Positions 9,851-64,000 of a stretch of DNA of 64,000 bases are shown one piece after another. The notes under the pieces were generated by a model. That model was given only the letters and a program-made list of their open reading frames with translations, made no database searches and was not told the origin of the DNA. A program made the position numbers and the translations under genes. The DNA lies in the NCBI GenBank assembly GCA_041650835.1, contig JBAZKL010000001.1:765617-829616 (forward strand), read 5' to 3'. How positions within the stretch are numbered: position 1 is the first letter of the stretch; the number at the start of each line of letters is the position of its first letter. The DNA is from Candidatus Omnitrophota bacterium (lineage in GTDB: Bacteria > Omnitrophota > Gorgyraeia > Gygaellales > Profunditerraquicolaceae).

Positions 9851-9899
9851 CATAGCGCTCTAAAGAAGCTATGATCTCGTTACGCTCCCGGTCAGGCAG

Positions 9900-21075: not shown

Positions 21076-21157
21076 GTAATCGGTGAAAAAAGCGATGCCG
21101 GCGCCGCTCCCCGATGGGCATTAAAAAACTGTTCAAAGGGATATACCGGACTTAATT

Positions 21158-29350: not shown

Positions 29351-29399
29351 ACGACGGCTCATATTCTTGAGGCGCCTCTAAGCCAAGCAGATTTAAAAG

Positions 29400-39700: not shown

Positions 39701-40500
39701 AATCCAATATAACTCCCAGGAAATCCAGGACGTCAGACGGGCTGTATGTGCGCAGCAATTCAAATTCCTGCGTGTATTTCCGGCTTAGCTTACGCGCATA
39801 GATCCCCTGCGCCAAGATCTTTAAATGTTGTTGTTCTTTCATATAAGCCGCCTCACAAAGAGCGCTATACCCTGCGATTTCCGTCTGTAACTGCCGGCTA
39901 AGCTCATCGAGTGAGTCCTGTCGGGCTTTCACAAAACCCTTTTCAAGCTCCTGCCTGCCCGGGATTCCATTTGTGGATAAGTGAGCGCGTTCTTCATAGC
40001 TTGCTTCGACCTGCTTTGGCTTTCTGCTTTCCATTTCAACAGCCAAAGCCTCTAAAGCGCTCACGAGCGGCTCAACCTGCGCGCGGGCCCTTGCTTTTTT
40101 CAAATATTGGCTGCCACTCAACACCTTTAAGAATATCCTTAATTCCCGGCTTTCCTCTATGCAAAGTTTTTCACCGTTAGCCACGATAAATTCTAAAGCC
40201 ATCTGGAAGCTTTCATATACCGTTTTATCGGGACGCCTGGCCTTTTCGATACCACTCACAAACCTCTCCCTGACCGAACGGACCAAAATACCGCTCAGCA
40301 ACTCAGACAAAAGATAATTTTTATAAAATTCTTTATTGAAGTAACCGGAATCAATCGCTTGCAGGAACTCGCTTCTTGCCTCGAAAGCGGAAGAACGCGC
40401 TAACTCAGGCTCCTGTTCTTTCATATCTTCTGCCTGATACAAGAGGGAATCACCGATTATCCGGTGAGCAGTACCCTTACGGCTTATATCATTATCGGTC
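36750..40500 (-). CDS. PEP-utilising enzyme (PTS enzyme I / PtsP-like or PEP-synthase-like): phosphohistidine domain and C-terminal PEP-binding TIM barrel, preceded by a long alpha-helical N-terminal region.
   Basis: Reverse translation: KDHTAHWVIMTNDIPVLTGAV (about 37960-38030); SYGADGIGLVRTEFLYKEE (37633-37668); SIGTNDLTAFTLRINRD; EVVICGELA. Boundaries unresolved. Confidence 0.45.
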
Positions 40501-41600
40501 AGCAACACCGCGACAGTCCCCGCGGCGATTGCCCGGGAATAAAGGCCGGCATTTAAATAACTGCCTGCCATAAGCAGGATAGCGCGCGCCAGCATATTTT
40601 CCAGCTCAGGGCTTGCGTTAAGATCGGCATGCTCAAGCGTTACGAAAAAGTCTTCCAGGTTATCTTCAGAAACAGCCATTTTCCCCGGCATTAATTGAGT
40701 TAAGGCGAGCATCGCCTGCCGCAGGGCTTTCTGATCGTCCTTCTTTAAATAATATGCTTTCGCTATCTCTAAATATATATTGCCCAGGAGCATGTCGGGC
40801 CCATACGCTGCCTCCCGGTCTTCCTTTAGCTTTACTTCATTGGGTGACGATTGTTTGATCGTTAAGGCTTCTTGTAATAACTCTAATGCCTTATCAATAT
40901 TTTCTTCACTATAACTATAGGTTTCACTCAAAGCGATCAACGCAATTATCCTGTTCAAACCGGAAAGATATTGCAGCGCTCCCCCCATATAAGCACGGAC
41001 CACATCATATTTTCCTAAGCGCAGAGCAGAGCGGCCTCCATGGTATTGCGCTTCAAGCGACGCCGCGGGAGTGAGCGGATGTATCAAAAGCACCCGGCTG
41101 AAGCTGTCCAGCGCCTTATCATCTTTACCGCTGTACTGGTACATATGTCCCCGCAGCAAGAGCGTTTCTACCTGCTTGCTTTTGACGCCCAGGACCTGCG
41201 CGGGAGTAATACCCTTCATATTGAATTCCGCGTTAAGTGACTTGAGCGCGATATCAAGGTTCATCCAGGCCTGAGGCGCTATATCAGAAGCAGTGCTTCG
41301 CGCGATAAGAAACAAGGTATTCGCCAAAAGGCTGCTCACCTGAGCTTTAGAATAATTCTCCGGGGCGATACGTAAAGCTTCTTCATACACTAAACGAGCT
41401 TCATCAAGGCGGGACATATGGGCAAAACACAAGCCTTGATTTGCTAAGACATCCACCAGGAAAACCTTTTCATTTTTCCCTAAAGAAACCTTTTCGCAGA
41501 GCGCTCGTGCTTCATCAAAAACAGCTAATGCTTCAAGGAATTTCCCCTGCGAAAGTAAAAGCCTGCCCTTATCATATACAGCAACGGCATCGGTAATGGC
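39900..41600 (-). CDS. TPR-repeat protein. May overlap the N-terminal region of the PEP-utilising enzyme call.
   Basis: Non-codon-checked read: AVYDKGRLLLSQGKFLEALAVFDEARALCEK...ANQGLCFAHMSRLDEARLVYEEALRIAP..., repeated 34-aa helix-turn-helix pattern. Confidence 0.3.
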
Positions 41601-41649
41601 AACAGGGCTGCCGGACCGCCTGGCACCGCCGCGCCGCTTCTTCACCCGG

Positions 41650-43780
41650 CCCTCAACCAAGGGAAGCTTAAGGGTAAATTCCAGGCCTTTGATCTCCTCA
41701 GTATAACGGTCGACATCCTCCAGTAATGCCAGGACAACCTTATCCAGGAATTCATTACTTACCTCAATACTGCCGCCGAGCAGGCGCATGGCCTTTTCGA
41801 GCCGGTATAAGGTAAGGGAGCCGGTATAGACCCTGTCCGAGAAGAACGGGGCAAAAAGAAGTATCAATTCCTGCGCCTTGAGCCCTTTACCGTCATCACT
41901 GATCTTCGTCTGTATCATCCCCTGCTTTTGGGTCATGGAGATACTTATCTTCTTCGCGCCTGCTTGAGCCGCGTTTTTAAGCAGATGATCGACCATGCGC
42001 ATAAAGTTTTTCGGAAGGATGACCTTCGCAGGCTGAGCGCTCAAACCATAACGGATATTCAACCCGGGAAATTCAGCCATTAAACGCCTGCCTTCGTCGA
42101 TCATATTCTTAATAAAGGTACTCAAGTCCACCTCTACCGGCTCGATGAGATTACCATCAGCCAAAGCCTTGATCAACGCCAGGTTCCGCTGATCCAGCTC
42201 CTCAGCGTTCTTTCGCGTGATCCGGATATCAAGCTGCATCGCCTCACGTAAAGAATCAACGCCGGACTTGATCCGTAAGATGGGAATATTCTTGACTCTC
42301 TGTTCAAGGGTATCAAGCCCCTCAAAGAATTCCTTAGTCAAAGCAAAGATGCGCATTGAGATAGGCAAAAGCACCTCTTCAATATTTTCGGCGAGGAACA
42401 TATTTGTGGTTTTACCGATCTTGATGGTTTCCTCAATAACTACTATCAAGCGCACCAGCCGCGCGGCAATAGATTCGACGACCATGATCCGGAGATATTC
42501 CAAATCGCCTGCGCCCACGCAATCTTCATTTACGCGGATAGCATCCAACTCGGATATTTTCTTTGCAGAATCGATGAGCCTCTGGATACGCGCTATTTCC
42601 ATGATTTCAGGAGAAGCATCCCCCGGAAATTCGTATTCTTTCTGCAGCGCCGCGACGAGCTCAACCTTCCTTCTCCCCAAGAAAAACAAAAGCGCGCGGC
42701 GGAGGTTAACATTTCTTACCGCAGGGATATCCAGGCCTTCTAATTCCTCAACGCTCTTTGCGGCGCGTATGGCCGATAAAAGCTTCATCACGCGTTCATA
42801 GAGGTCCTGTCTGCCGTAAAGCTGCGCCAAAAAGACTTCGTAGCACAACTCAAATACCTGATCGATCTTTTTCTCCAGCCTCCTGATAAAACCTCCCATA
42901 GGCACGACCACATTGCGGAAATGATGCGGGAGCGCATCCGCAACGTGTTTTCTCACCAGGACATCCCTGGTCAACTCCGCTTCCGCGCGCACGAGAGGAT
43001 CGGGATCTTTCAAGAGCACAAGCACCAAAAGCGCGGCGGCCTCAAAATTCACATCACGCAGATCTATCGCGAACTGCTTACGCTCATCGATGCTTCCTCC
43101 CCGGGCAAACGCGATAAGCCGGCGCTTGACGTTTTTCTGCTCAAGATGCGCTGTTAATAAGCATAAACACTGGAATCTCTTAACAGGCGCGGCTTGCGGA
43201 TAATCGTTAGCGCATCTTTCCAAGATCGCCTCAAGCTCGCTCGGCGTTGCTTTTATCGCGACAACCTTGACCTTAATATTGTCGCCGATCTGCGCTGTCG
43301 CCCATTTTCGAAGCTGTTTGTTACCGGCATTCGGACGCGTATTAAAATATATCGAGAACTCAAAATGCCCTGCCTGTGTCGGCTGTATGATGATCTTTAT
43401 CTTAAAAACATTCCCTTCGAGGCCTGCGGGTGAGAGCTCTTCTTCTTTCCTTAGCTTTTGGCCTTCCGAATCCATATACATGCCTACTACTTCGACCTCA
43501 TCATGGGAGACCCTGCTTTTGGCATTCGACCAGACATCAACGATCAAATAGTCTTCGTCCAACAAACTTTCAAATTCTTTCTTGGTTATACAGCGGTCCA
43601 GCTTAACAAAGGCATAGCCGAAAATACGCTGGCCGATGATTATTTCGCCTTCCCGGGCGGTTTGCTGGTCGGCGATCTCGGCTTCCATGCTTATGTGCCC
43701 CGCGGAAAATACCAGCGGTTTTTGCCCATCGCCTAAAACCGGAGAGCTCGCCTCCTGCTGCCAGCTGCGCGATCCCACTA
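41650..43780 (-). CDS. Sensor histidine kinase-like protein with HEAT/ARM repeats and a C-terminal HATPase_c domain. Possible PilZ-like N-terminal segment.
   Basis: Reverse translation of 41931-41996 gives MVDHLLKNAAQAGAKKISISMTQKQGMIQTKISDDGKGL (N/G1 boxes). HEAT-like LLKDPDPLVRAEAELTRDVL. N-terminal GEIIIGQRIFGYAFVKLDR...MDSEGQ. Confidence 0.4.
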
Positions 43781-43789
43781 ACGCGCCCC

Positions 43790-45840
43790 GGCTGAACCCG
43801 CCATAGCGGATCTTCATATACGCTGCCAGGTTATTAGCCACGCCCCATGCCTGGGCATCACAACCGCGGGGCCAATGGGAATAATTCCCGTCAAGTATTT
43901 CCGAGACGCTCCCCACCCCGGCTACCGACAAATGTTCATCGATCTCTGCGAAATAGGGAAGAACGAAACGGATACTCTCCAATGAATATTCATGCGCGGT
44001 GACATACGCCAGAGCCCAATCCCCGAAGAGGTGCGGCCAGGCTGTCCCGTTATGATACGCCGGCTTTCTTTGAGTATCCTCTTCCCCCTCATAATAACCC
44101 CTATAAGGGAATACAGAATGAGAACAGGTATCCTGCGACAAGGTCCGAAGTGCCGCAGGCACGACTAATTTCTCTTTTACTATTTCAACCACGCTCTTTT
44201 GCTGTTTCCGGGAAAGCAGGTTATACTGCGAAAGAACAGCGATAAGCTGGTTCGGACGGATCGCGGCGTCTTTTTTTGCGCTGGAAACCGCCTGATGAGG
44301 ATATGCTTCCAGGGTATCGGCAAGATATCCTTTTTCGGTGAGCCAGAAATATTCTCTAAAACTGTGACGTATCTTTTTGGCGGCAACCATATAATTTTGG
44401 GCTTGAGCGCTTTCTCCTATTTCTTCAAAAAGCTTTGATATGTATAAAACACTCTCATACCAGCGCGCGTTATTCTCAACGGTATAGCCTTCCCGGGGAG
44501 TACAAGCCGGATAATTCGTATCCATCCAGGTAAAATGACTCGGCGACCAGATCAAAAAGGTTTCCTGGTCCATGCGTATCCCGTTGGGAGTGCCATGGCG
44601 ATACCCCTCAATTATTGATGTCATGATCTCAAGGATGATCCGTTTCCCTGCTGTCTCAAAAAGGATAGCTTTATCTCCTGTTGCCTCGATATAACTTCTC
44701 ACGGAGAGGATATACAAAAGCGGAGCATCCACAGTATCATAATTTTGCGCGGTCTCACCGGCAATGATGTTCGGAAGCATTCCTCTATCTTCAAATTTAC
44801 CGAATGCCATCAACAAACCTTTGGCAATATCGTGCATTCCGGCAGCCAGGATCCCGTCGAAACAAATAAAGGTATCCCTGCCCCAATCAGAGAACCAGGG
44901 GTAGCCGGCAAGCACGGTATAGAACTTATCGCGCTTGGCGACGAACGGCCATAACCCCAGCACCATTTTCTGCACAAACGCGTCTTTACGCGCGGCAGGG
45001 TCTTTAACTTTGCGTATTCTTTCCAATTGAAGAAGGCAATTATCCTCGATCATCGCCTGTGCCTGGGCTTCATTAATATCTTTCTCTTCAGTTAAAAGGT
45101 CTTTGCTGGCAAACACAATATTTGTTGATCCTTGTTCGGTAAGGACAGCCGTGAAGAACCCCGGGCTGTAACTATCGCTGGCATTATCCTGGCCCCGCTC
45201 TCCTTCAATGGGATTAAAACCATAATGCCATTCGGGGCTGAATTGATAGCTCCCCGCGGTAGCCCACATCCTTATCCCATCAAACCCCGGATACCAGTTT
45301 TTCCAATCATCGCTGATCGGCCATATTCCAAAGCCTTTTACGCTTTCGCCGTCTTGTATCGGAAAATGCTTGCCCGACCACCAGGAAACTGCGCCATCCC
45401 AATGCTTGGCTGTTTCATGATGCAGGCGCATCTCTAAATCGGGCCTGATGAAAAGATGGACCTGCTTGATACCCGGCGTCATAGCCGCGACATGGTAATT
45501 AAAAAGGAACCTGTTCGCGCCTTCTTCCAGGACGGCAGTTTTAACGATCACAACCTGCTGGCCGCCCTCAATGGTGAGCACAAATGTCCATTGCGGCAAA
45601 GGATACCGCTGGAAGTGCGCGAACGTATTCATATCGAGATGGAAGGCTTTTTCCTGCCCGTCATAGACGAGCGTTACATCTTCGACGATCCCTCTAAAAA
45701 TAACCCTCCGCGACTCATCCGGAGCCGACAGGATTAAATTTGCCTGAAAGCCGTCATACTTGCTGGTATACCCCTGGGTTTCAATGGCCAGCCCCATCTG
45801 ATGGCGCGCCAGAGGCCGGATAGGCAAGCGTAAAATACTT
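43790..45840 (-). CDS. Glycogen debranching enzyme (bacterial/archaeal GDE N-domain plus amylo-alpha-1,6-glucosidase six-hairpin domain).
   Basis: Reverse translation: GYPWFSDWGRDTFI (44874-44909), AYHNGTAWPHLFG, CDAQAWGVANNLAAYMKI (about 43800-43845). The gene begins just below the upstream TAA at 45849-45851. Confidence 0.55.
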
Positions 45841-45848
45841 CCCCGGCC

Positions 45849-48740
45849 GTTAGAGAGAGTGACCGTATTATGCGGGTAGAGATCAAAAACATCTTTCTTT
45901 AACCGCAGCGACAATTCGCCTTCCTCAACAACCTCACTCCATGCTTCCAACACAGGCATGACTTTCAGGTGATACTCCTGCCGCAAACCATTATCCCCTT
46001 CCCATCCGTTATTTTCCCGTTTACCGATCCATAAAAAGCTGACTGAATATCTTCCCGGCTCAAGCATAGAGATCATAGACAGATATTCCGACAAGTCCCT
46101 GACCGGCAATGAATGCGCGTAGGTCTCTTTACCGCTTTTCTCATGGCGCAGGTAGACCACGAACGGATGCGGGTTCCTGAAAGCCAGAGAACATCCGTAA
46201 TGCACTAATACCTCTTTGTTCTTGTTCTCCTCCCAATCCCACTCAACGGTCTGCTTGCGCGCATCCAGGTCACAGACACTGATCTCTGAAAAAGAGGAAG
46301 CATAAACTTGCCTTTGCTGAACAGGAACATCGCTTTCCTTGGCAATAACACGGATACGATACCAATCCGTATACTTCGGATACTCCTCTCCCTCGGCAAA
46401 TACTCCGGCGCGCAATTTATAGTCACCCGGCTCTAATTCATGGATAATGGTAGAAAGAATAGCTGAACGCTTTCCTTCCCCGTTACGGTAAGAAGAAACA
46501 TGCGGTTTATTCAACCCTGAATTTTCTTCCATAATATCGATATTAAAGGTTTCATCCATCGTGAAATAGACTACCTGCCCTTCCTGCACCACGACTTGCG
46601 TTCCACGGAAGCCTTCCCAATCCCATACTATGCCGCCGGCAGGTATCTCGCTTTTTTCCAGGCGCAATACCGCGACCTGTCCGGGGGCCAGGTCAAATTT
46701 CATGCGCGGCTCTTCATAGAGGTATTCAACGCCGCTTATCAGCTCTTTAAAAAGGAAGCGGTGGGCCAGAGGAATACCCATGTACCAATAGGTGATCGGC
46801 ACATCGAGCGTTTTTTGATCATTACTGAAGTTCGCCGCGATTATAAGGCTGTTATTTTGATAATGCTTAACGAAATAAACCAGATGCTCTTCATTATAGG
46901 GGGTAAGATTGATCATATTGGAATTACCGACCGCGGGATTCTCTTCCCTGATCTTAACAAAGCGCTTAACCCATGATGAGAGGTCAACCGGGCCGCATTC
47001 CTTAGTCCCCCAGTCGGAACAGACAGGCCTGCCGGCAGCATCATGCGTTTCTTGTTTTATATTCGCGAATGTACCGAATTCTCCCAGGCTGACCAACGCG
47101 GTCTCTATCCGGGGGCCTAAAAGGAGCATGCCTAAGAACGCGGGGCCTAATAGCTCAATAATGTATTTCTGTAATTCAACGCTGTCTTCCTGAGTAGAGA
47201 TGCCGGCCAAATATTTAAACATCCCCCAATATTCTTTAGACCAGCGATAGCTGTCGTGGGTATCGACAACCGTATAACCAAATTCCCGTGAAATACCGGC
47301 AACATCATTGATAAAATCCCTCAGGAATTTACCTTTTAAATCAAGGACAAATGAATATTGCAGGAACCCCAGGCTGATCAAACTGAAATAGGCGTGAGGG
47401 TCAGCGCCCAACTGTTCAACAATAGGCAGAATATCATTCTCCTGAAAGTATTGCGCGATCCTCTCCCAGAGATTCGTATGATAATGGACCCGGCCTGAAG
47501 TCCCGCAGCCATATTTATGCAGCGCGTCAAGCCGCCAACCCGAGATACGCGCGGCGTTCCCGTGCGTATAGAAAATGTCGGGAAATATGCGCCCCCAGTA
47601 TTCAAACGGCTCAATTCTGGGGTCTTCTTTACCTTTTAAAACCTGTTCGTGAATACTCAATTCATCCCAGGAAGCAAGATCCCCCCACAGCGGGCTTAAG
47701 ATATTTCCTTTTTTACCCTTTTCAAAATAACCTCTATGGAAAGCGGCATCAACGCCGTCCTGGGCCCGATAGAAAGGAAGATCGCCCAAGATCAAAATAC
47801 CCTTTTCCATACAAGTACTTAATAATCCATAAAACTGTTCAAAACTAATAAACTGTTCGTAAAGAATGGAATTCATGGCGCAGTCGCCTTCCTGGCAATG
47901 CCAAAAATCCTCTAAAGGATACGAAATGCCGCTGATCGATTTACCCGGGTATTGCTGATTGCGCTTCAGGACCAACTCCGCGTATTCCCTGGCCTGCTTG
48001 AGCTGCGCGAATTTCATAAAAGCCGTTTTTCTTCTTTCGCTGCCGGAATTCATAAGGTCATAGAGGCGCTCGCTCAAGAACCCGCCCTTATCTTCAACAC
48101 ACTGCCAGTCGATAAAACAGGGATGCAGCGCGTACACGGAAAGCGGCGCGAACGGGCTTTCTCCGGATGTCGGGAAGAACGGAGAAAGCATAAACACATT
48201 TTTACCGGTCTGTTCAAACCTATCCAGGATAAAATCCCTGATCCCGCTCCAATTGACCGCGAAGCCGCGGCAGGCCACATCCGGTAAAAACACATAGGAG
48301 GGATGAAAAGTTTCCGGTTTGATCCAGGTCGGCATCCGGTAAACCTTAAGCGTAACGTTTGAACCGACCCACTTCGCCTCTTTCTGGTGCTTAGTTTGCG
48401 CAAAACCGGTAAATTCAAAATGACCTGGTTTAGAGACCAAAAGTCTCATCCGGGCGCTAAAAACACCGGGGAGCAGGTTGTTCTCTGAGTCGTAAGATTG
48501 AGCTATGCTCTCCGGAGGAAATTCAATGGAATGCCACACTTGAGAATCGGCATTCGTTTGAATGCCCGCGGTCAAATCTTCGATATTTGCGACAGGCGTG
48601 GTAGTAACCGTTACCTCTATTTCGATCGTATTATTGATACCTATGGCGGGCTGGTCCCAGGGAGCAGGGCTTATTTCAACGCGGGTAACAACAGGCAATT
48701 CGGCTGTTACCGCCGAAGAACTAACCATGCGCGGCGGAGC
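45849..48740 (-). CDS. malQ: 4-alpha-glucanotransferase (GH77 amylomaltase, MalQ-like) with an N-terminal beta-sandwich (CBM-like) domain and C-terminal extra domains.
   Basis: Reverse translation: start MLLRAPPRM at 48738-48740. FHPSYVFLPDVACRGFAVNWSGIRDF...MLSPFFPTSGESPFAPLSVYALHPCFID (48111-48190). FYTHGNAARISGW (47538-47573). Stop ...HNTVTL-TAA at 45849-45851. Confidence 0.55.
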
Positions 48741-48845
48741 GCGCAGAAGCATATTTTCAGCGACCAATTCAGCTGTCGCAGGGAAATCTAATTGCGCCAA
48801 CGGCGCTGACGCGATAAACACGGCCGTTGCGGTGATAAGGTCCCC

Positions 48846-48938
48846 ACCAGCCACGCCCCGTTGGAAAATAACAGTTGCTCCCCACCAGCCACGGAAGGTA
48901 AAGCATAACTGTAATAGTGATATTTTCCAACGGGGCAC
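48846..48938. repeat. 93-nt intergenic repeat element with a 16-bp inverted repeat (copy 1).
   Basis: Exact or near-exact match to 52703-52795. Stem cgccccgttggaaaata ... tattttccaacggggc encloses a loop of about 50 nt. Lies between the SAS-domain gene end and the GH77 start. Confidence 0.7.
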
Positions 48939-48959
48939 GGAAGGTAAACCAAATCGCTT

Positions 48960-51900
48960 GAACCGCAACGGCCGCGATGATTCCTTACTGATACTTGAAC
49001 TGCTTTGCTGCGGCACCGAAGATGCAAGAACCGCATTCAAAGGGCCTTGTTTTTCTTGAGGGATATTTTTCGAAAATATTCTCTGACTCACCGGCGATTT
49101 ATCAGGATTTAGTATTTTAACCCCCGTCCCGGTATCGATTTCCGCCAAGAATATATCCCCGGTTTCGGCCTTCCCTTGAGCAGAGAGGGAAAACAGCCGA
49201 GACGACCTTAAAGCAAAGCTCTGCCCATAAGCAGGGACCACTTTCTTCATGTTCGCGCCGAACAGAACAAATAAACTCCTGACATTCCCCGGTTTATTCT
49301 CAAGTGAGGGGAAAGTCAATTCCAAAGCGCCGGGATACTTACGCGAGCGGTTGACCACCATACAATAGGCGTTATTACCTATTCGCTCGATGATCTCGCC
49401 ATATTGCTCCATGGGGATGCTTTGCCAGGAAGATATCAGGTTATATTTTTGCGGCGGCATGCGCAATAAAACTTCACCGCGCCTCAAGCCCTGCATATGC
49501 CCGGCCACAATTTCAATATCGGCCACATTGTTCTTCGCGTAATGTTTTCCGGCGCTTTCGCGGCTTAATTTATAGACCCAATGCGGACGGTCGAAATTTT
49601 GTTTTGCTTCCCAATCTTCTTTTGAGAAGATCTGGACCTCAGCCGGCACGCCTTCAATATTTATAAATACAACATACTCATTCCACTGGGCCCTGATGCC
49701 GGCGAATTCTTTATTATGATGCTTATATTCGGGATTTTCTTCATTCAGCTCCTGCAAGGGGTAATTATTTAATAAATAGCTCAGGATATGATAGACATCG
49801 TGCTTCGTCCTGCTGACAATAGTGATCCCGAAAACATCCTTTAATCTCCTTAAGTCTTTATTATATTCTTTCTTGGTCATTGCCTTTTTCCAGCAGGTAT
49901 AAGCGTCTTTTACGCGGGAAAACATTGCGTCGGCATAAACGCCGCTTTGAGCTAACCGGTAACGCATTTCAACTGATCTTTCCAACAGATAATCCTGGGC
50001 TTGACCAAAATCCCTGCCTCCCCTGATCTCCCTGACTTCATTAACAACATCAGCATAAATTTCAGTATAAGAAAAAACGACTTCCCTGAATTGCCGGTCT
50101 AATCCTTCGAGCCTTAAGAATTCAGCTAAGGGGGCGTAAATACAATACACTTCATTCGCCCAGGATATCCGCTCCTCGACTGTTTCCAGGTGCCTGCCGG
50201 AAGCGAGTTTATCCGCCAGGACTAAGACTATTCCATGAACACCTGACAGCATTAAGATCATGCAGATATATTTTTCCAGGGCATCATCGCCTTTTACGAC
50301 CCGTAAAGCAGGCAAAGAATTAAAACGCTGCATCAAGAGGACATAATCCTTGATCGTTTTATCGCTCATGAATCTCTTCTTTAATGACTGGCTTAAGGAA
50401 GGGGCTTCTCTTGTGGGATTAATATGCGTCAAGAGCGCGAAAAGCGCTTGAGGCTTAAATGAAACACGGTCTATGAATTCAACATAGATCTCCAGAACAT
50501 CCAGGATATGGGTAAGCACGCCTAACCCGGCTTCAAAATAGGCTGACGCGTAACGAGGCACGCTGATAAGACAATAAACCTCAATTGCCGCTTCGATATC
50601 AGCGGCTGATAAATGCGAATAAGGGATCTTAGAACGCAGATTGATCAGTGAGGCAAAAAACCGGAAGGCAGATCTATCTTGTTCCGCTAAAGGCACTGCC
50701 AGCGCGCCTGAAAGCGATTTATTCTCTATCTCCAAAAATAACAGGATCAGGCGGCTGGTAAGGCTTGCTGATTGTTTTTGTTTACCCAGGTCAAAATAAG
50801 CGGGATGGATAATAATGGTCTTTGAAATAACATCTAAAGCGATACATTTTCCCCCGGTTGATACAAGAGAGGTTGTGATCTCTAATGCCCACACGGGAGG
50901 CGCGCGCAACGAAAGAGGAGCGAACTTATCCAGGCTATCCTTAATAACCTGGTAATGTTTTTCAGAATAGAAACCGGCAGAAAGGCCGATATCAAAACCT
51001 TTCAATTGCCTTTTCAGTAAAATCCTATTCTTCCCGTAAACAGCTTCGGCTTTTGCTTGCGCCTTTTCCGAGACCTTAAGAGGGCTGCCCGAGCCCGGGG
51101 CATTTGCCGCGACTTTATTCCTGCCGCTTTCTTTAGCTTCATAAAGGGCGATATCCGCCCGTTCAATAACATCCTTATGACTGTCATCAATTCTTTGAGG
51201 ATCAAACTCACTTACCCCGATACTGACGCTCACGCTGATCTCCAAGCCATTATTCTTAAACACATATGCTTCTATCATCTGCCGGATCTTTTCCGCCTTC
51301 AGGGCGGCATTCGTTAATTTACATGACAAAGCCAGGCAGAACTCTTCCCCGCCGTAGCGGAACAGCGAATCATTGGTACGGATCGAGTCCTGGATCAAGC
51401 GGGAAACCTCTGCCAGGACAACATCACCCATCGTATGGCCATAGGTATCATTGACTCTCTTAAAGAAATCTATATCAAGCATCAGGATAGAAAGTTCATC
51501 TTTGCCTCTTCTGACGCGGGCGGTCCATTTCGGCAGCTCTTCTTCAAGGTACCTGCGGTTATACGCGCCGGTTAAAGGGTCCCGTATCGCTGATTCCCGC
51601 GCCGCTGCCTTCTCTATCAACGCTTTACCTAACTGCTGCCTTAAATGCCGGCCCATCCAAAGAGAATTAAGGTATTCACTCACCAGGAAGTAGGGAACTA
51701 AACCGACGACAAGAAGATACAAGAAGCCATGCGCCGGGCCGTACGGCAAAGAAATGATCATCGTGAATGCTTCCAGCGCCAGGACATAGATATAGCCGCC
51801 CAAAGTATAAGACAGGAAACTTCCTATCCTGTCGATTACGGCCGCAAGCCAATGCGTAGCCTTATCCGTTAAAGATACCCTGCGTAAGGCCGCGGAAACG

Positions 51901-52300
51901 ATCTTATTGTTTATTTTGTGCAGGATCAATTGGGGCGCCAGGAATGCGATCATAACCCGATACAAGAGGTATTCCTGAGAAGCAGCGATGACCGCCGGAT
52001 GGAGGACAATATTTTGAGCGGCATCCAGGAAACAAACGCTGCCTTCATCAACCGCCTTTCCTTCATTATAAGCCGCGATTTCCTTCTCCAAACTGCGTAC
52101 GGCATATGCTTGCATGGATATAATTGCCGCGAGCAGGAGAGCCGTTACAAAAACAAACGGCAAATTAACAAACTCGAACTTATAGAAGCTGCATAAGGCG
52201 CCCAAACCAACGCAGGCGCATGACCACAACCAAGCATACCGCTTTATCTTGCCTGAAGTAATTATCGCGGAGGGAATTGATCCTCCCTGATCTTCAAGCG
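48960..52300 (-). CDS. Membrane-anchored GGDEF diguanylate cyclase followed, in the same apparent ORF, by a degenerate HD-like region and a RelA/SpoT-type (p)ppGpp synthetase (SAS) domain. May be two adjacent genes.
   Basis: Reverse translation: N-terminal hydrophobic helices; DPLTGAYNRRYLEEEL...MLDIDFFKRVNDTYGHTMGDVVL...RYGGEEF (51344-51364) ...ADIALYEAKESGRNKV; later FGITIVSRTKHDVYHILSYLL and PAEVQIFSKEDWEAKQNFDRPHWVYK (49566-49640; vEvQIRT...HW.YK synthetase signature). Confidence 0.45.
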
Positions 52301-52335
52301 GGCTGCCGGCTAAGACGGGAAGGACCTGATTATTG

Positions 52336-52599
52336 TTACCCGTTAAGAGACTCTCCCTCAAAATATATGGGAACATCTTTAAGCTGCCCCTGAAGAGCTC
52401 CCCTGACCTGCTCGGCGCATTCATAGGTAAGTTCATGCCAACCCCCCGGAGACTTTCCCCACGCGTACCCCAAAGGCGAGAGGATGAATTCAAAGACTGT
52501 TTGGCCGTCGGGAACGCAGGAATAGACGACCACATCGCGGGAAGATAAAACCCTAAGCTGTAAGACCTGTAACTGACTGAATTGATATTGACTAAGCAT
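52336..52599 (-). CDS. Small hypothetical protein (87 aa) with a canonical RBS.
   Basis: AAGGAGGT, 6 nt, then ATG. This ORF is listed in the supplied track (MLSQYQFSQLQVLQLRVLSSRDVVVYSCVPDGQTVFEFILSPLGYAWGKSPGGWHELTYECAEQVRGALQGQLKDVPIYFEGESLNG). Stop TAA at 52333-52335. Confidence 0.6.
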   Translation of the reverse strand: MLSQYQFSQLQVLQLRVLSSRDVVVYSCVPDGQTVFEFILSPLGYAWGKSPGGWHELTYECAEQVRGALQGQLKDVPIYFEGESLNG

Positions 52600-52702
52600 C
52601 CGTTACCTCCTTGATTAATATTATGGGCTGCGGAGTAAAGGCCCCCCATTCCTCGACCTGGCTCGGAATCCCTCAAAGAGGAACCCTGAGCTCGTCGAAG
52701 GG

Positions 52703-52795
52703 CCAGCCACGCCCCGTTGGAAAATAACAGTTGCTCCCCACCAGCCACGGAAGGTAAAGCATAACTGTAATAGTGATATTTTCCAACGGGGCACG
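52703..52795. repeat. 93-nt intergenic repeat element with a 16-bp inverted repeat (copy 2).
   Basis: Matches 48846-48938. Lies between the end of GT-B gene A and the start of the small ORF, in an AT-rich spacer at 52600-52900. Confidence 0.7.
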
Positions 52796-52910
52796 CAAGA
52801 GGTAAGCCCGAAACGTCACTCCGCAACCCATCTATATTTGTAAACGTTTTCATTTGAGTGTAAAAAAATACTTCATCGATCCTATTTTTTGAAGCGATAG
52901 CCGACGAGGA

Positions 52911-55052
52911 TACAAAGACGCGGTAATCAGGATTGCTCCAGACATAGATATCCAGTTCGTTATTGACCGATTTCATTCCCCGCGCGTACGAGCGTACCGT
53001 AAACCCTAACTCACCGCGCGGTAATTCCATACGCTTGCTCACCTTGATAATATTCCCCGCCGCCTGCTCCCCATCCATGCGCTCCGCCTGCCACGGTTTA
53101 CCGTCGTATGCGCCGTACCATACTTCCGCTTCCACATCCGTTGCGCTTAATCCCGCCTTGCATACCACCTGCGCCTTCACCTCGTACTCATTGCCCCCGA
53201 CGTGCTCCACCGTAACATTCTTCACCGCGGCTATCTTCGCGTGCTTTCTCACGAATTCAAACACCCGCCCGTAATCCAACGCCATTCGTTTACTCGTCAC
53301 CTTCTGATGCGCGATCGCGTACGCCTCGCTCATCATCCCCACCCACCGCTGGTCACGATGCTCCACGTACCCGTAATATAACTGGCTGGCTTCTTTCAAA
53401 TACTCACCCAACAACTGCTGCGCCCGGCTCCTGAACAACTCCACGATCTGCTTCTTCTCCTCATACCACTCAGGCAACTGCATCAACCGCACCTTATCCT
53501 CAAACGAATGGTGCGTCCCTTTGAACACGTTCATCAGCCACCCATTCATCCCGTGCATGATGTATTCCAAAGCCCCGCCCGTTGCCGTCGAGATGACCAA
53601 ATGCCCGTTCAAACCAGCCTTCTGGTCAGCCACACTGCAGCCCTCCATCGTCGACCACGGAACCACAACCCACACGTCGCTTGCCTGCACCGCATGCCTC
53701 ATCACTTCCGTCCCCAACCGTTCCACAAACACAAATCTACCCCGAAGGTCTTCTCTACCCATCAGTTCCTTCAACTTACCCACCCAGCACTTCCCTATCT
53801 CATCACGCGCGATTCCCCCCATCAGCACGTTCATCCCCAGCCCAAACTTCTTGCCCTGCGCTGTATCATATTCCTTGTCCCTGTCCCCGCACACCCACTC
53901 TATTATCTCAAATAAGATCCGCTGCTCCTGGTATGAGATCACCCGGCTCACCATCCCCACCAACGGACGGCTGATCTCACTAAAACTCACTCCCGCCGTC
54001 TTCTTCAAATACGCCTGCAGGTCTTCTTTCGCTTCCTGCCCTGCTTTAAAGATCGATTCCCCGCACACCCGCTGCTGCACCCCCCTGGCTTTTGCTTCCA
54101 GCTCCAATAACCGCTTATTTTTCCATTCCATTTCATCTGAGCCGTTCAAAATGCTCACTATCTTATACTTATGGTCCCCTAAAATGATCATCCTGATCAC
54201 TTCTTTGTTCTCCTCAGACACCGCGGTCACCACGACCGCCCGTTCTGCCAGCCGCCTCATGAGCGACACTTTTCCGTCCTTGATGATCCAATCCGGCACC
54301 ATATCCGCACCGATCTTCTCCTTTAACCATCCGATATCGTGGTACGTCGGCAGTAACGAAAGATCCGGCATGTGCACCGTCAACACTACCGCCAGATCCT
54401 CATAGATACTCTTCTCTCCGCGGCCGCTGAAATATTTCACGTCGTTCCTACGCGCTACTTCCACGAACAATAACTGCGCGTCGTTCAATCTCACCACGTC
54501 AGGTGACACTCCCAGCGCTTTGAACAATTCCACAAATACCCTCCCCATGAACGCCAGCTGGATCGCGCGCTCCGGCTCCTCAGGATACAACTCATTGAAG
54601 ATCTCAGGCTGGCACGCTAATATCACCGGTGTGCCGCTGCGTTCCACTACATAAAAACTCACCACGTATTTCCTCTTATTGAACCTTACTTCTATCCGCA
54701 GCTGTTCTTCTGTTTCCCCGTTCTTCACCCATAACGGCTCTAACTCACTCTCCGTATCCCAATGCACCCGCAGCAGGTTCCCGTTGTCACGGTAGTACGC
54801 GTATAACGGCATTAACCCCACCGCGGCAACTTGCGCCTGCGCGTACCCGCTCCAGTTGTCTACCGCCAAATATCCCAGTTTACCCATACCCATCCCCTGC
54901 TGGATACGCTCATCTTCTATCTCCTTCAAATACCCTTCCAAACTTATATCTGCTACGAATTCTCCCCGCCCTATCATCCACCTTAAATTGTCGTCCGCTA
55001 CTTCTTCCCATCTGCTTAATGGCGATCCGCTTAATAATGAAACCGTTTTCAT
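52911..55052 (-). CDS. Alpha-glucan phosphorylase / glycogen synthase-like GT-B glycosyltransferase (copy A) with a C-terminal CBM-like beta-sandwich.
   Basis: Reverse translation: start MKTVSLLSGSPLSRWEEV at 55050-55052. N-terminal GMGMGKLGYLAVDNWSGYAQAQVAAVGLMPLY (the K-GGLG/sGGLGiLAGD region of GT5/GT35). C-terminal SDVWVVVPWSTMEGCSVADQKAGLNGHLVISTATGGALEYIMHGMNGWLMN (GT-B C-terminal Lys/TGG motif). Then VKAQVVCKAGLSATDVEAEVWYGAYDGKPWQAE (CBM-like). Confidence 0.5.
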
Positions 55053-55099
55053 TCCGCTGTAAAAATTTTTCTCCAAAGGCGAAGCGCAAACTCTTGTTT

Positions 55100-56300
55100 G
55101 CTGGGGCTGCCTGATCGATGCCTGTTCCGGGATAATAAGGCTGCCGTAGGCAATAGCGTCATATTCTTTTAATAAGACCGACGGTGATCTCCCTGCCAGT
55201 AAAATATTTATTTTTTCGTCATACGCGCCTTTTTTATCTAATTCCGCCTTGGTGACAATATCAACAATAATGATCAGCTTATGGTCGCAATTGATCCGGA
55301 AGAATATACGCCAATTATTTGAATCGATACGCGCGTGGTACAGGCCGAAAGAACTATTATCGATCTTTAAAGAGCTCTTCGACCTTTTAGTCCCCAGCTG
55401 CTTTTTAAGCTGTTCGCCTAAGTCATTAAGCAACTGTTCTTGCTTCCACTGCGCGTTACTGCCGTTATTCCTCTTAACGAGGTAAACCTGAAAAGTATTT
55501 TCCGCCGCAGCGAGATCCTCAAGCTTACCCCACGCCTGGAAAACCACCTTAAATATATCGGGTTCAAAGCCGGCGAAACGCTCAACGATGGCGTCTGTAA
55601 TATGTTTTTCAAGAGGATCCAGCCACAGGTGTTGAGCCAGGAGCCTTGCCAGGCGCGTTAAAGGTAATTCTCCGCAAACTGCCGAGAGAAGTTCAACCAT
55701 GTTCTCCTGGTTAGCCATGATATAGGCCAACGCGATCGGCTCCGTCAAATTCGCGGCATAAGCTTTTGCTTGTTTCTTCGAAACGGCTGCCACGGGTTTT
55801 TCCCGCGCAGCTTCCCGGCACACAGCAACTTTCGGCGTTTGAGCAACGCACACATCGGCGGCAGCTTCAGACAAAACCTGAGCCACCGCGGGTAACAAGG
55901 CTTTCTGAGGGGCAGGATTATTAAGAGCATCAAGCTGCCGCTGGTCCCTTTCCATATCGCCATTGATAACAAAGACGTTGCCTTGCAACTGCCTTATCCC
56001 CGCCGTCATGATCTTTTCTTCCGACTGCGCTTGCCGGATATCCTTCATAAGTGAGTCGCGCTGCTTCACCAGATTCTTCCAAAGGCGGTCTTTTATCCTT
56101 ACTTCTTTCTGTTCCGCGGTAGGCCAAAAGAAGCGCAGGGCCTTTTCCCAAACGGATTGCTTTTCAGAATAAACGCGTATCTTTTCCCTTAGATCAGCCG
56201 TCTTTGAACGGATCCTGTCAGCTTCACCGGATTTCGTCCTATGTTCTGCCTTTAAAGAAATAACGTTCGCGCGGAGATCTTCCAATTCTTTATTCCTCAT
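55100..56300 (-). CDS. Coiled-coil-rich segment between GT-B copies B and A. A separate small gene or genes, or the C-terminal tail of B.
   Basis: Non-codon-checked reverse translation is rich in heptad-like E/K/R/L runs (...ELEDLRANVISLKAEHRTKSGEADRIRSKTADLREKIRVYSEKQ...). Confidence 0.2.
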
Positions 56301-58628
56301 GACCAAAACTTCCTCGATCTCATCTCTTTCTTTCTCGAGTTCCCCTATCCGGGTGAGCAGGGCATCTTCATTCACCGCAGATGACGCTCTTTTTGCCTGC
56401 CCGCGCCCATCTTTGACCGGCGACGACGCATGGCAAACACGGTAATCCTGTCCGAATTGCTGGCTCCAGGTATATATCTCCAGGTCAGGATCAACTTCTT
56501 CCATACCCCTGGCATAGGCCCGCGCGGAAAATCCGCAATCACCGGGAAGCAGCTTTACTTTAGTCGTACCGTTTATAGTCCCGAACTCAGTCGCTGCCAG
56601 CTCCATGTTCACCGCGTTCCACGCGGAACCGTCGTATCTTCCGTAATATATCTGCATCACCACTTCATCCACCCCCAGGTCGGCGCCTAAGACTTCCGCG
56701 GAGACTTCATACTCATTTTCCTGCAGGAGTTTAACATCAAGGTTCCTGATATAAGCGATACGCGCTTCGCGCCTGACGTATTCGAACATCCGTTCGTAAT
56801 CCCTGACCATGCGTTCAATGGATACTTTTTGATGAGAGATCACATACGAATCCTTCATCATGCGCAGCCAGCGTTCATCCTGGTTTTCCGTATAGTTATA
56901 ATATAACCGGGAGGCTTCCTGTAAATATTCTCCCAATAAACGCTGCGCGCGGGAGCGGTACAATTCGACGACCGCCTTCTTTTCCGGGTATTTATCCGGC
57001 AACTGCATCAACTGCACGACTTCTTTGAACGAATAGCCTGTTCCCGCGAACACATCCATGAGCCAGCCGTTAATACCATGAATAATGTATTCCAACGGGC
57101 CGCCGGTAGCGGTAGCGATATTAGGCTTACCATTGAACGCGGGCCGGTGATCCGAGGTACCGCAGGCTTCCCGGGTGGAACGCGGCATGCTCACCCAGAC
57201 ATCGCTTGCCTGCGTTGCCCGCTTCATGATCTCATAGCCTGAACCTTCAATAAAAACGAACTTACCGAGAAGTGACTCCTCCTGCATTAATTTCTTGAAT
57301 ATATCGATCATCTCCACGCCGAACTCATCCTGTCCGACACCGCCTACCAGCACATTCATCGCCAACCCCGGGAACTCTCCCCACGGGATAGAATATATTT
57401 TATCCCTGTCTCCGCAGATCCAATTCAGTATTTCATACAATATCCTTTGCTCTTTGTACGCGACGAGCCTGCGGACCAATCCCACGAGCGGCCGGGAAAT
57501 ATCGCTAAAACCATGCCCGGCTATTGCTTTAAGGAACTCATTTAATATTCCTTTATTCTCCTGGCCGATAGTAAAGAGGTCCAGGCCGCTCACCTCTTCT
57601 CCTTTGACGAGAAGCTCTGCTTCTAATTCCTGCAATTTCCTGCTTTTCCATAATTTCGGGTCAGAACCGTTCAATATACCGGTAATTTTCTTGCTGAATT
57701 CAGGCAAAATAACCAGCTTCGTCACTTCCTTATGTTCGTTTGCCACGGCGTTAATGATGGTTGAGCGTTCAGCGATACGCCGAGCCATATCCACCCGTTC
57801 ATCGCGCACGATCCACGCGGGGACCATATCTTCACCGATATGATATTTCAACCACCAGATATTATCGTACGTCGGCAGTGCGGCTGCTTCAGGAGTATGT
57901 GTCGTCAGTACCACTCTGGTGCGGTTATGAGGGCTCTGTAACCCTTTGTTCCTGAACAATTCTATTTCATTGCTGCGCGCGACCTCCAGGAAAAGTAATT
58001 GCGGTTCATTCAGCCGCAGAATATCAGGCATAACCCCTAAGACGCGGAACAATTCAACATACACTTTTCCCATAAAAGCATATTGCTTGACGCGCTCCTG
58101 AGCGTCTTTCGGATACAAGGCCGCGAATATCTGCGGCTGATACGCCAAGAGCACCGGTGTCCCGTCACGCTCCATCATATAAAAAGTCACCGGATAACTC
58201 CTGGAGTTTAATTTCGGCTCTATCATAAGCTGTTCCAGCTTATCGCCCCTGCGTATCATGACGGGCTTAATAATATCGGATTCTTCTTTCCAGTTGATCC
58301 AGAAACGGTTCTCCACCTCCTCAATTTCAATGATATCCTCGCCCTTATCATTCTTCTTTACGACCTGCTTTTTTTCCATTACTTTAAAATTAGCATATAA
58401 CGGCATCAACCCCATAACATCCATACCTACCTGGCCGTAACCGCCGAATGTTTCCCCTGCCAAAAAGCCCAACCCGCCAGAAGCTAACGCGTTCTGCCAT
58501 TGCTGGTTCTTGACCTCGGGTAAAAAGGCTTCCAGGGATACGTCCGCGACAAACTGGCTCTTGGTTACGATCTCCCTTAAGCGGTCATGCGCGATATTCT
58601 GAGCGAGAATAGCGCTCGATGAACGCAT
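56300..58628 (-). CDS. Alpha-glucan phosphorylase-like GT-B glycosyltransferase (copy B), a diverged paralog of A and C.
   Basis: Reverse translation: start MRSSSAILAQNIAHDRLREIVTKSQFVADVSLEAFLPEVKNQQWQNALASGGLGFLAGETFGGYGQVGMDVMGLMPLYANFKV (the aSGGLGfLAGE signature of the alpha-glucan phosphorylase family). C-terminal CBM-like AYARGMEEVDPDLEIYTWSQQFGQDYRV at about 56400. Confidence 0.5.
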
Positions 58629-58673
58629 TGCGACCAGCGCGCCTGTTATTCTATCGGCGATAGCCGACGAGGA

Positions 58674-60815
58674 TACAAAGACGCGGTAATCAGGATTGCT
58701 CCAGACATAGATATCCAGTTCGTTATTGACCGATTTCATTCCCCGCGCGTACGAGCGTACCGTAAACCCTAACTCACCGCGCGGTAATTCCATACGCTTG
58801 CTCACCTTGATAATATTCCCCGCCGCCTGCTCCCCATCCATGCGCTCCGCCTGCCACGGTTTACCGTCGTATGCGCCGTACCATACTTCCGCTTCCACAT
58901 CCGTTGCGCTTAATCCCGCCTTGCATACCACCTGCGCCTTCACCTCGTACTCATTGCCCCCGACGTGCTCCACCGTAACATTCTTCACCGCGGCTATCTT
59001 CGCGTGCTTTCTCACGAATTCAAACACCCGCCCGTAATCCAACGCCATTCGTTTACTCGTCACCTTCTGATGCGCGATCGCGTACGCCTCGCTCATCATC
59101 CCCACCCACCGCTGGTCACGATGCTCCACGTACCCGTAATATAACTGGCTGGCTTCTTTCAAATACTCACCCAACAACTGCTGCGCCCGGCTCCTGAACA
59201 ACTCCACGATCTGCTTCTTCTCCTCATACCACTCAGGCAACTGCATCAACCGCACCTTATCCTCAAACGAATGGTGCGTCCCTTTGAACACGTTCATCAG
59301 CCACCCATTCATCCCGTGCATGATGTATTCCAAAGCCCCGCCCGTTGCCGTCGAGATGACCAAATGCCCGTTCAAACCAGCCTTCTGGTCAGCCACACTG
59401 CAGCCCTCCATCGTCGACCACGGAACCACAACCCACACGTCGCTTGCCTGCACCGCATGCCTCATCACTTCCGTCCCCAACCGTTCCACAAACACAAATC
59501 TACCCCGAAGGTCTTCTCTACCCATCAGTTCCTTCAACTTACCCACCCAGCACTTCCCTATCTCATCACGCGCGATTCCCCCCATCAGCACGTTCATCCC
59601 CAGCCCAAACTTCTTGCCCTGCGCTGTATCATATTCCTTGTCCCTGTCCCCGCACACCCACTCTATTATCTCAAATAAGATCCGCTGCTCCTGGTATGAG
59701 ATCACCCGGCTCACCATCCCCACCAACGGACGGCTGATCTCACTAAAACTCACTCCCGCCGTCTTCTTCAAATACGCCTGCAGGTCTTCTTTCGCTTCCT
59801 GCCCTGCTTTAAAGATCGATTCCCCGCACACCCGCTGCTGCACCCCCCTGGCTTTTGCTTCCAGCTCCAATAACCGCTTATTTTTCCATTCCATTTCATC
59901 TGAGCCGTTCAAAATGCTCACTATCTTATACTTATGGTCCCCTAAAATGATCATCCTGATCACTTCTTTGTTCTCCTCAGACACCGCGGTCACCACGACC
60001 GCCCGTTCTGCCAGCCGCCTCATGAGCGACACTTTTCCGTCCTTGATGATCCAATCCGGCACCATATCCGCACCGATCTTCTCCTTTAACCATCCGATAT
60101 CGTGGTACGTCGGCAGTAACGAAAGATCCGGCATGTGCACCGTCAACACTACCGCCAGATCCTCATAGATACTCTTCTCTCCGCGGCCGCTGAAATATTT
60201 CACGTCGTTCCTACGCGCTACTTCCACGAACAATAACTGCGCGTCGTTCAATCTCACCACGTCAGGTGACACTCCCAGCGCTTTGAACAATTCCACAAAT
60301 ACCCTCCCCATGAACGCCAGCTGGATCGCGCGCTCCGGCTCCTCAGGATACAACTCATTGAAGATCTCAGGCTGGCACGCTAATATCACCGGTGTGCCGC
60401 TGCGTTCCACTACATAAAAACTCACCACGTATTTCCTCTTATTGAACCTTACTTCTATCCGCAGCTGTTCTTCTGTTTCCCCGTTCTTCACCCATAACGG
60501 CTCTAACTCACTCTCCGTATCCCAATGCACCCGCAGCAGGTTCCCGTTGTCACGGTAGTACGCGTATAACGGCATTAACCCCACCGCGGCAACTTGCGCC
60601 TGCGCGTACCCGCTCCAGTTGTCTACCGCCAAATATCCCAGTTTACCCATACCCATCCCCTGCTGGATACGCTCATCTTCTATCTCCTTCAAATACCCTT
60701 CCAAACTTATATCTGCTACGAATTCTCCCCGCCCTATCATCCACCTTAAATTGTCGTCCGCTACTTCTTCCCATCTGCTTAATGGCGATCCGCTTAATAA
60801 TGAAACCGTTTTCAT
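58674..60815 (-). CDS. Alpha-glucan phosphorylase / glycogen synthase-like GT-B glycosyltransferase (copy C), identical to copy A.
   Basis: 58654-60853 is an exact direct repeat of 52891-55090. The identical plus-strand shadow ORFs at 53521/59284, 52963/58726 and 54856/60619 confirm this. Confidence 0.5.
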
Positions 60816-60999
60816 TCCGCTGTAAAAATTTTTCTCCAAAGGCGAAGCGCTTAATATATTTTCAATATAAACGGCGGCTTCTTCAGTTGCCTGGCGGACG
60901 GACAAAACATCCATATCGACGACATAGGCGCCGGTTAAATCAGGCTTCTGATAAACGCTCAAGCTATTATGATCTTCGATATATTGCGGTTTGACCCCT

Positions 61000-63900: not shown

Positions 63901-64000
63901 CTTAAAGAAACTTCAGAAAGGCCCTTACCCTCATAAACATCAAAAGACAGCACATTCTTATAGGTCTTTAACTGCTGCTTACGGTAATTGTATATGCATA
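61000..64000 (-). CDS. Carbohydrate/nucleotide-sugar enzyme region: kinase-like segment followed by an HxGH-type nucleotidyltransferase-like motif. The gene or genes run off the right edge.
   Basis: Reverse translation of 63240-64000 gives ...YEGKGLSEVSLRVTNKRGANYIWKNGSF...SKELVMVALPGTFDPAHFDHIDLLLDTL (T/HxGH cytidylyl/adenylyltransferase-like motif) ...QYVAFMAPVGTNAPDPDGVV. Confidence 0.3.

Follow-up and report, generated by a model that had tools for sequence, protein, structure and literature searches.

We analysed a 64,000-nucleotide (nt) stretch of the Candidatus Omnitrophota bacterium contig JBAZKL010000001.1 (assembly GCA_041650835.1, positions 765,617 to 829,616 of the forward strand), here called the window, in which one palindromic repeat occurs twice on the minus strand (copies A and B; Table 1). 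An earlier reading, made from the sequence alone, had placed both copies in spacers between separate genes. We find instead that a single minus-strand coding frame passes through the whole window without any stop, and that both copies lie inside this one open reading frame (ORF). The other two minus-strand frames contain 1255 and 1591 stops. The long ORF does not appear in a program-made list of ORFs because frames that run off both window ends go unlisted. Codon scoring favours the giant frame nearly throughout, with its main failures around the two copies; another frame scores better over 52600-52360 and, briefly, near 55100 and 60800.

What the sequence-only reading took for genes (GH77, GGDEF and the rest) are thus domains of a single open frame that extends over 21,332 codons or more; of its genes, only the small ORF stands as a separate one, in another frame. 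A gene-by-gene treatment of the window was rejected: starts that combine a ribosome-binding site with ATG are not enriched, numbering 15 in the giant frame versus 48 and 3 in the others. Pfam searches of the giant frame detected about 20 different enzyme and signalling domains, among them HATPase_c, GT5/GT1 modules, GGDEF, RelA_SpoT, GH77, GDE, TPR, PEP-utilisers, iPGM, HD, YcaO, YkuD, HAD, NusG NGN and a methyltransferase. The same domain set is found in the "Archaeovorin"/multi-enzyme giant proteins of Omnitrophota (bioRxiv 10.1101/2023.11.21.568195; bioRxiv 10.64898/2026.06.07.730766). With more than 10,000 codons and tiled enzyme and signalling domains, the window is part of an Omnitrophota-type multi-enzyme giant gene. 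Homologues of the GH77/GDE region include 'Candidatus Omnitrophica' partial proteins at 44-46% identity that fill their whole contigs, and the best homologue of the GDE part is a 989-amino-acid protein at 55% identity. It is curious to meet a transcription-elongation-factor (NusG N-terminal) domain within a gene longer than 60 kb.

Table 1. Positions of the features discussed (window numbering, except where a locus handle beginning with L is given for a sequence from elsewhere)
Feature	Position	Strand	Remarks
Giant ORF	3..63998	-	21,332 codons, 0 stops, open at both window ends
Copy A	48847..48943	-	97 nt in common with copy B, 93 of them perfect (48847-48939); covariance model 128 bits
Hairpin core A	48856..48935	-	80 nt; CCCCGTTGG...CCAACGGGG, CGTG on either side (minus strand)
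Apex motif A	48879..48899	-	21 nt, ACCTTCCGTGGCTGGTGGGGA; near-invariant in the family, identical to the insertion target
Outer inverted repeat around copy A	48814..48981	-	arms 48814-48833 and 48962-48981; 20 nt, 85% complementary
Copy B	52703..52799	-	covariance model 125.8 bits
Hairpin core B	52712..52791	-	80 nt; corresponds to the 84-nt insertion seen when site B is compared with its empty orthologue in L012
Apex motif B	52735..52755	-	same 21-nt motif
Older 'host' hairpin, site B	52623..52831	-	arms ATGGGTTGCGGAG (52819-52831) and CTCCGCAGCCCAT (52623-52635)
Second, unrelated hairpin	52649..52702	-	54 nt; in spacer B just after copy B; missing from L012
Small gene	52336..52599	-	87 amino acids; Shine-Dalgarno sequence AAGGAGGT at 52605-52612; 103 nt downstream of copy B
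Small-gene loci	window 52336-52599 (-); L002 69-338; L003 49-306; L004 5598-5855; L005 199-462; L006 10001-10270; L011; L012		
Perfect duplicate	52894-55087 = 58657-60850		2194 nt, 100% identical; in-frame, spacing 5763 = 3 x 1921
NusG NGN domain	about 18230-18500		giant frame
YkuD (L,D-transpeptidase) domain	22200-22530		giant frame
YcaO domain	24000-24900		giant frame

The repeat and its fold

The sequence-only reading had reported an identical 93-nt sequence at 48846-48938 and 52703-52795. The perfect identity holds, but the first copy is displaced by one position and lies at 48847-48939, since base 48846 is A where base 52702 is G. Extended further, the match covers 97 nt with one mismatch (48847-48943 and 52703-52799), so that the copies are 99% identical direct repeats. 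They are spaced 3856 nt apart, a distance equal to 1 modulo 3, so the codon phase in which A is read differs from that of B. The inverted repeat that had been described, 16 bp long and perfect, is present (GCCCCGTTGGAAAATA / TATTTTCCAACGGGGC) and grows to about 20 bp on the minus strand when G-U pairs are allowed; the internal repeats are likewise real, CCAGCCACG being the plus-strand reading of CGTGGCTGG. We define the unit as the 80-nt core plus one CGTG, which gives 84 nt, the length of 28 codons. Within the 64-kb window the 21-nt apex motif is confined to these two sites, against 0 occurrences expected by chance.

Beyond the 97 nt, the flanks of A and B are not significantly similar by local alignment (shuffled sequences did as well in 151/500 and 226/500 trials). 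A longer shared element around the two copies, suspected by eye, was dropped on this ground, the flank alignment being at shuffle level. What remains of that idea is that both copies sit atop an older hairpin, copy A at the top of the outer hairpin 48814-48981 and copy B in the host hairpin of site B. The 54-nt hairpin next to copy B also has a length that is a multiple of three, and it has no other occurrence in the window.

Folding of the minus-strand RNA, which the sequence-only reading had proposed as a check, gave a stable structure of -52.8 kcal/mol (z -5.8), matched by 0/200 shuffles; the plus-strand RNA folds at -43.5 kcal/mol (z -5.9), again with 0/200 shuffles as good. When the sense strand of the entire 64 kb was scanned with a 120-nt sliding window, copies A and B emerged as the most structured segments. 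The Rfam scan, likewise suggested there, gave nothing relevant: no family reached the gathering score in the window, and none matched the element at E<=5 over 48500-53000. Scanning the window for tRNA and tmRNA genes found none, and scanning it for promoter and terminator consensus sequences revealed no enrichment and nothing at the element.

A repeat family with filled and empty sites

We built a covariance model, R1, from copies A and B. Its first match was L005, a metagenome contig of 773 nt, and an exact pattern taken from the blocks conserved between L005 and the window then retrieved six stretches in GTDB genomes and one JGI contig. An initial exact two-arm pattern, CCGTTGGAAAATA...TATTTTCCAACGG, had given 0 matches in the genome and metagenome contig collections, and two patterns gave 0 matches among viral contigs. 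In all, the search for more copies yielded eight further distinct ones in six other assemblies (Omnitrophota or PVC metagenome-assembled genomes). These full-length copies, in L005/L011, L012, L008, L013 (two), L009, L010 and L007, score 46-120 bits, so that the model recognises 10 distinct copies on the sense strand at 46-128 bits; antisense scores reach only 20-38 bits. The possibility that no other copy and no stable structure would be found, which had been named as fatal to the original proposal, is thereby removed, as both exist. Among the taxon titles of the element-bearing contigs, one reads Candidatus Omnitrophota and four read 'uncultured Planctomycetales'. The hosts are tentatively attributed to Omnitrophota on the basis of domain architecture, homologues and the one contig so labelled.

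In the family alignment the ends (CGTG-CCCCGTTG ... CAACGGGG-CGTG) do not vary, nor does the apex (CCTTCCGTGGCTGGTGGG), whereas the middle stem is variable. Its cells are paired in 93% of cases, against about 50% in slid controls, and 15/36 stem pairs show changes on both sides, values that 0/500 shuffles reach; these pair counts come from an alignment fitted to a model built from the window copies, and from related sequences. An independent RNAalifold run detected 11 compensatory pairs.

All copies but one are sense-oriented, and the frames that hold them contain 0-1 stops over 8 kb, which places 9/10 in long open frames. The exception, in L007 (1290-1405), is intergenic, with a greA-like gene before it and another gene after it. 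Counting the core and one CGTG, eight of the in-ORF copies have units of 84 nt and the ninth has 87, whereas the L007 unit measures 95 nt and contains stops on its sense strand; lying outside any long ORF, the L007 copy provides a natural control without that constraint. Over all cores we count 4 stop trinucleotides on the sense strand and 40 on the antisense strand. The in-ORF copies occupy codon phases 0, 1 and 2, and the frame is open through every one of them. Because in-ORF copies are multiples of three and nearly free of stops on the coding strand, the gene stays unbroken. At site A the conceptual peptide from the hairpin is LPSVPRWKISLLQLCFTFRGWWGATVIFQRGVAGG, and the junction peptide spanning the hairpin is ...FGLPSVPRWKISLLQLCFTFRGWWGATVIFQRGVAGGDL....

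Nested or tandem arrays of 46-nt left units and 38-nt right units, which sum to 84 nt, are found in L008, L013 and L010. There are three left units in L008, and the second L013 copy (L013b) has 1 left and 3 right; in the nested arrays, successive 46-nt left units are read in all three phases, stop-free. Hairpins of another type, TTTACC(C/T)CGTTAGAAAT...ATTTCTAACGGGGCTGG, abut the nested arrays (L008 reverse, last ~60 nt; L013 2000-2150 reverse). Several hairpin families thus seem to be clustered at the same junctions, in the manner of BIME mosaics.

Two of the long frames contain a sole stop. The one in L010 (at about 180, reverse strand) lies 40 nt upstream of the hairpin, and the one in L004 (at 5206) lies 390 nt upstream of the small gene described below; in both, one stop in 8-10 kb divides upstream and downstream long ORFs, with the same frame open afterwards. 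These single stops could be gene boundaries in some genomes that are fused in others, sites of read-through, or sequencing errors.

L012 (CAZPNW010000112.1) is syntenic with window positions 55985-48814 at about 80% nucleotide identity, and this single pair of genomes supplies the comparison of empty and filled sites. Site A is filled in L012 (3118-3222), where 100/105 positions are identical to the window copy. Site B (6961-7031) is empty: the hairpin there is a simple one, ATGGGTTGCGGAG...GGCTTACCTCTTCCGTG^GCTGGTGGGGGGCC...CTCCGCAACCCAT, and after it come the same ribosome-binding site and the same small gene. The target apex in this empty site reads CCTTCCGTG^GCTGGTGGGG, and site B of the window equals the L012 hairpin plus 84 nt at the caret, the 54-nt unrelated hairpin and 3 nt. 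All of these indels are multiples of three, 141 nt altogether, and the 84-nt difference falls precisely at CCGTG^GCTGG, as expected of orthologous empty and filled sites of a MITE. The stems and apex of the host hairpin are conserved between the two genomes; its loop is not. Since the L012 site is empty and its target apex carries the family motif, the 84 nt of copy B were recently inserted at the apex of a hairpin. Its recency also follows from the cores of A and B, which are identical at 80/80 positions, whereas four-fold degenerate sites are only 62% identical between the window and L012. The insertion target being the element's own apex motif explains the hairpin-in-hairpin arrangement at A and B and the stacks in L008, L013b and L010. 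CGTG flanks both sides of the eight copies that sit in an apex target, and the right-hand CGTG is missing in L009 and L007, the two copies that sit elsewhere than in such a target. A protein search for further orthologous empty sites, using a 1700-amino-acid stretch across both copies, returned generic GGDEF-domain matches only.

The embedded gene and the duplicated module

The small ORF at 52599-52336 is a real gene. It has stand-alone full-length homologues of 85-89 amino acids (E 1e-10 to 1e-5 with a single sequence, 1e-30 to 1e-35 with a profile), and it is embedded in the giant ORF, whose frame is the small-gene frame +1. That +1 frame is stop-free over the gene and its upstream spacer in the window, L002, L003, L004, L005/L011, L006 and L012, and runs on into a long or giant ORF at the small-gene loci. 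The +2 frame contains 5-8 stops at the five loci counted, and the +1 translation resembles out-of-frame junk. Between the window and L012 the small gene shows 29 nucleotide differences, distributed 10/3/16 over the codon positions of the small frame, which cause 12 amino-acid changes in the small frame versus 19 in the giant frame. This pattern indicates constraint at the protein level in the small frame, the giant frame being merely kept open. The small protein matches no Pfam family. Its middle part has multi-stretch matches in Ig-like repeat proteins, which are uninformative.

The 2194-nt perfect duplicate is either a recent duplication or an assembly problem. It consists of a GT5/GT1-type module of unusual composition, with a GC content at third codon positions (GC3) of 0.72 and a strong G skew. 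The concern that the repeat might be part of a longer duplicated block does not apply, as this duplicate ends 94 nt from copy B. L012 lacks the second copy of the duplicate, from which we infer that the site-B junction was recently rearranged in the window lineage.

Interpretation of the repeat

On balance we think it probable that the repeat is a REP/MITE-like palindromic element, resembling the Rickettsia palindromic elements (RPEs) in its consequence, that lives inside Omnitrophota-type giant genes. A REP- or MITE-like element had been among the candidates of the sequence-only reading, and it is supported by the multi-genome family, by the empty and filled site, and by the nested and tandem copies. 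Starting from what we observe directly (the family and its structure, the occupied and vacant sites, the constraints on length, phase and stops, and the giant-ORF context), we propose the following course of events. The element combines invariant ends, a variable middle stem held paired by compensation, and an invariant apex, CCTTCCGTGGCTGGTGGGG. New copies would insert at the CGTG of the same apex motif in a pre-existing family hairpin, and the outcome would be hairpins nested in hairpins and, in places, tandem half-units. Versions that persist within ORFs would be those that are sense-oriented, of 3n length and stop-free in frame, most of them stop-free in all three sense frames. Ribosomes would read the element in whichever phase it had landed, adding about 28 residues of arbitrary peptide at the junctions between enzyme modules. 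Copy B was inserted once the window lineage had separated from its closest available relative, the probable source being copy A itself or another identical copy in the same genome. The mechanism of insertion may be enzymatic, with the enzyme supplied in trans, or may consist in template switching or gene conversion; the element may be either selfish or useful. Its peculiarities are that it targets its own apex motif, that it is readable in any phase, and that it occurs so far almost only in giant genes.

Several points weigh against this interpretation. The 'duplication' of CGTG is ambiguous, as this tetranucleotide also pairs within the stem through G-U. The orthologous site-A copies are 95% identical, compared with 62% at neutral four-fold sites, and neither apex nor ends vary among genomes that share only 31-37% identity in their small proteins; conservation beyond that of a decaying selfish insertion points to a function, or else to repeated re-insertion or homogenisation. 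The unequal units of L013b fit slippage better than clean nesting. Transposase, RAYT (REP-associated tyrosine transposase) and recombinase domains were looked for in the giant frame of the window and none was found. Finally, the proposal that ribosomes would translate through the element has constraints on sequence as its basis.

The most serious alternative, possible although we think it unlikely, is that the host has selected the hairpin as a cis-acting structure of the giant gene, formed by the sense RNA or the non-template DNA, that punctuates module junctions; possible roles include pausing of the ribosome or of RNA polymerase, binding of a factor (such as the NusG-like domain), processing, and internal initiation of the 87-amino-acid gene. 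Both of the conservation figures just given (site A between the window and L012, and the blocks invariant among genomes with divergent small proteins) favour it, as do the maintenance of the stem by compensatory changes and the conserved stems and apex, with unconserved loop, of the site-B host hairpin. It would also account for a strand bias: the invariant G-U pairs exist on the sense strand only, the sense RNA folds better by 9 kcal/mol, and the model scores 70-128 bits in sense against 20-38 bits in antisense. Two distant lineages (window copy B and L005/L011) have a copy upstream of the small gene, some 90-100 nt away from it, and the giant ORF itself encodes a NusG NGN domain. Against a host structure, occupancy differs between close relatives, L012 being empty at site B; nested and tandem copy numbers vary; copy A has no small gene downstream; as DNA, the two strands differ little in how well they fold; no Rfam family matches; and the model finds no match at L002, L003, L004 and L006, although L002 and L003, with only 68 and 48 nt upstream, are little informative. 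The cis-regulatory RNA that the sequence-only reading proposed to be common to glucan and signalling genes fares the same way, being favoured by covariation and strong conservation and disfavoured by the lack of an Rfam match and the variable occupancy. A more specific form, which we regard as rather doubtful, holds that the hairpin is a conserved punctuation signal at module junctions that coordinates segmented transcription, processing or translation of a message of more than 60 kb. It would act by pausing, by recruitment through the NusG-like domain of the ORF, or by opening a window for internal initiation; the site-B hairpin would then precede the separately initiated 87-amino-acid gene, and nesting would be the origin of new junction signals. 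A host RNA function of the hairpin and its descent from a repeat can both hold, and the element could be a domesticated repeat.

The remaining alternatives have little to recommend them. Copies A and B flank, as 99% identical direct repeats, a 3856-nt signalling segment between glucan-enzyme modules, in a neighbourhood rearranged to the extent that the 2194-nt perfect duplicate lies beside copy B; they might for this reason be att- or attC-like boundaries of a 3.86-kb mobile cassette with the small gene, GGDEF and RelA/SpoT. L012 makes this very improbable, as it carries the same cassette in the same place with site A alone filled, so that the cassette is independent of two flanking copies. 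Nor is the composition of the 3.86-kb segment distinctive, the outlier being the duplicated GT module (GC3 0.72). The stem ends CCCCGTTGG...CCAACGGGG do not fit the attC core sites (RYYYAAC...GTTRRRY) and have the opposite order, no integrase domain was found in the window, and other genomes show single, nested or tandem copies and no cassette-flanking pairs. A transcription terminator or attenuator between separate genes, another of the original candidates, would explain a long GC-rich stem in stretches of low coding potential, the sole frame stop of L010 situated 40 nt upstream of the element, and the position of the L007 element after a greA-like gene. We nonetheless consider it highly unlikely: neither strand has a run of T or U behind the stem, the terminator scan called no site at the element, intrinsic terminators have a much smaller loop and stem, and the coding frame of the window runs through without a stop, the length and stop constraints placing the element within the ORF. 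Least likely of all is that the repeat is an artefact of assembly or duplication. A 2194-nt duplicate, 100% identical, 94 nt from copy B and missing in L012, might raise that suspicion, but copy B is placed precisely in a site-specific hairpin whose flanks are conserved with L012, and the same family is present in six independent assemblies.

Among known systems, RPEs come closest in effect: these short palindromic repeats lie in protein-coding genes, keep the frame, are translated as extra peptide and occur in several copies per genome (PMC10969869). Our element resembles them in being an in-frame, translation-compatible insertion in coding genes, with units of 84 or 87 nt in 9/9 in-ORF copies. 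It differs in host phylum, in unit size (84 nt versus about 100-150 nt) and in what it encodes, namely different peptides in three phases, none of them conserved, where RPEs encode a conserved peptide. Further, it inserts into the apex of hairpins of its own kind and stacks up in nested or tandem fashion, and the in-ORF copies found so far (there is also the one intergenic copy) lie in giant ORFs, whereas RPEs lie in many ordinary genes; no sequence relation to RPEs was noted, no direct homology search having been made.

REP/REPIN sequences and BIMEs share with our element a hairpin of about 100 nt made of two inverted arms, compensation in the stem, and hairpins of different types side by side. 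In REPs, the tetranucleotide beside the foot of the hairpin is GTAG; a conserved tetranucleotide holds that position here too, but it is CGTG. REPs are extragenic, whereas 9/10 of the copies here are inside ORFs and constrained to be translatable; no RAYT or IS200/IS605-type gene was seen among the domains of the giant frame. Like MITEs (Correia, ERIC, BOX), the element is small and non-coding, is polymorphic in presence and absence, has one intergenic copy (L007) and carries terminal inverted repeats (16 bp perfect, ~20 with wobble) around an 80-nt core. Unlike them, it has an insecure target-site duplication and no known parent insertion sequence, inserts specifically into the apex motif of its own family, and has the same orientation in all in-ORF copies. 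The element shows neither the short loop and U tract that, beside a GC-rich stem, define an intrinsic terminator, nor the core sites, integrase and cassette array of an integron attC. With no homology noted, no conserved peptide, no secure target-site duplication and no known transposase, it is not a member of the RPE, REP or MITE families.

The wider question concerns the origin, upkeep and expression of genes with 20,000 to 150,000 codons. Palindromes, hairpins, MITEs and in-frame repeats go unmentioned in both giant-gene preprints cited above, as does an embedded out-of-frame small gene. Our findings give direct sequence evidence that even stretches of a giant gene that are not protein-like are under selection to stay open: the indels of 3n, the purging of stops from the sense strand only and the intergenic control argue that the giant frame really is read through. 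Unusual, too, is the arrangement at eight loci, where giant ORFs enclose, out of frame, a conserved 87-amino-acid gene that has a ribosome-binding site of its own. A repeat family able to grow inside an ORF without breaking it offers one mechanism for expanding and diversifying the linkers between the modules of giant genes.

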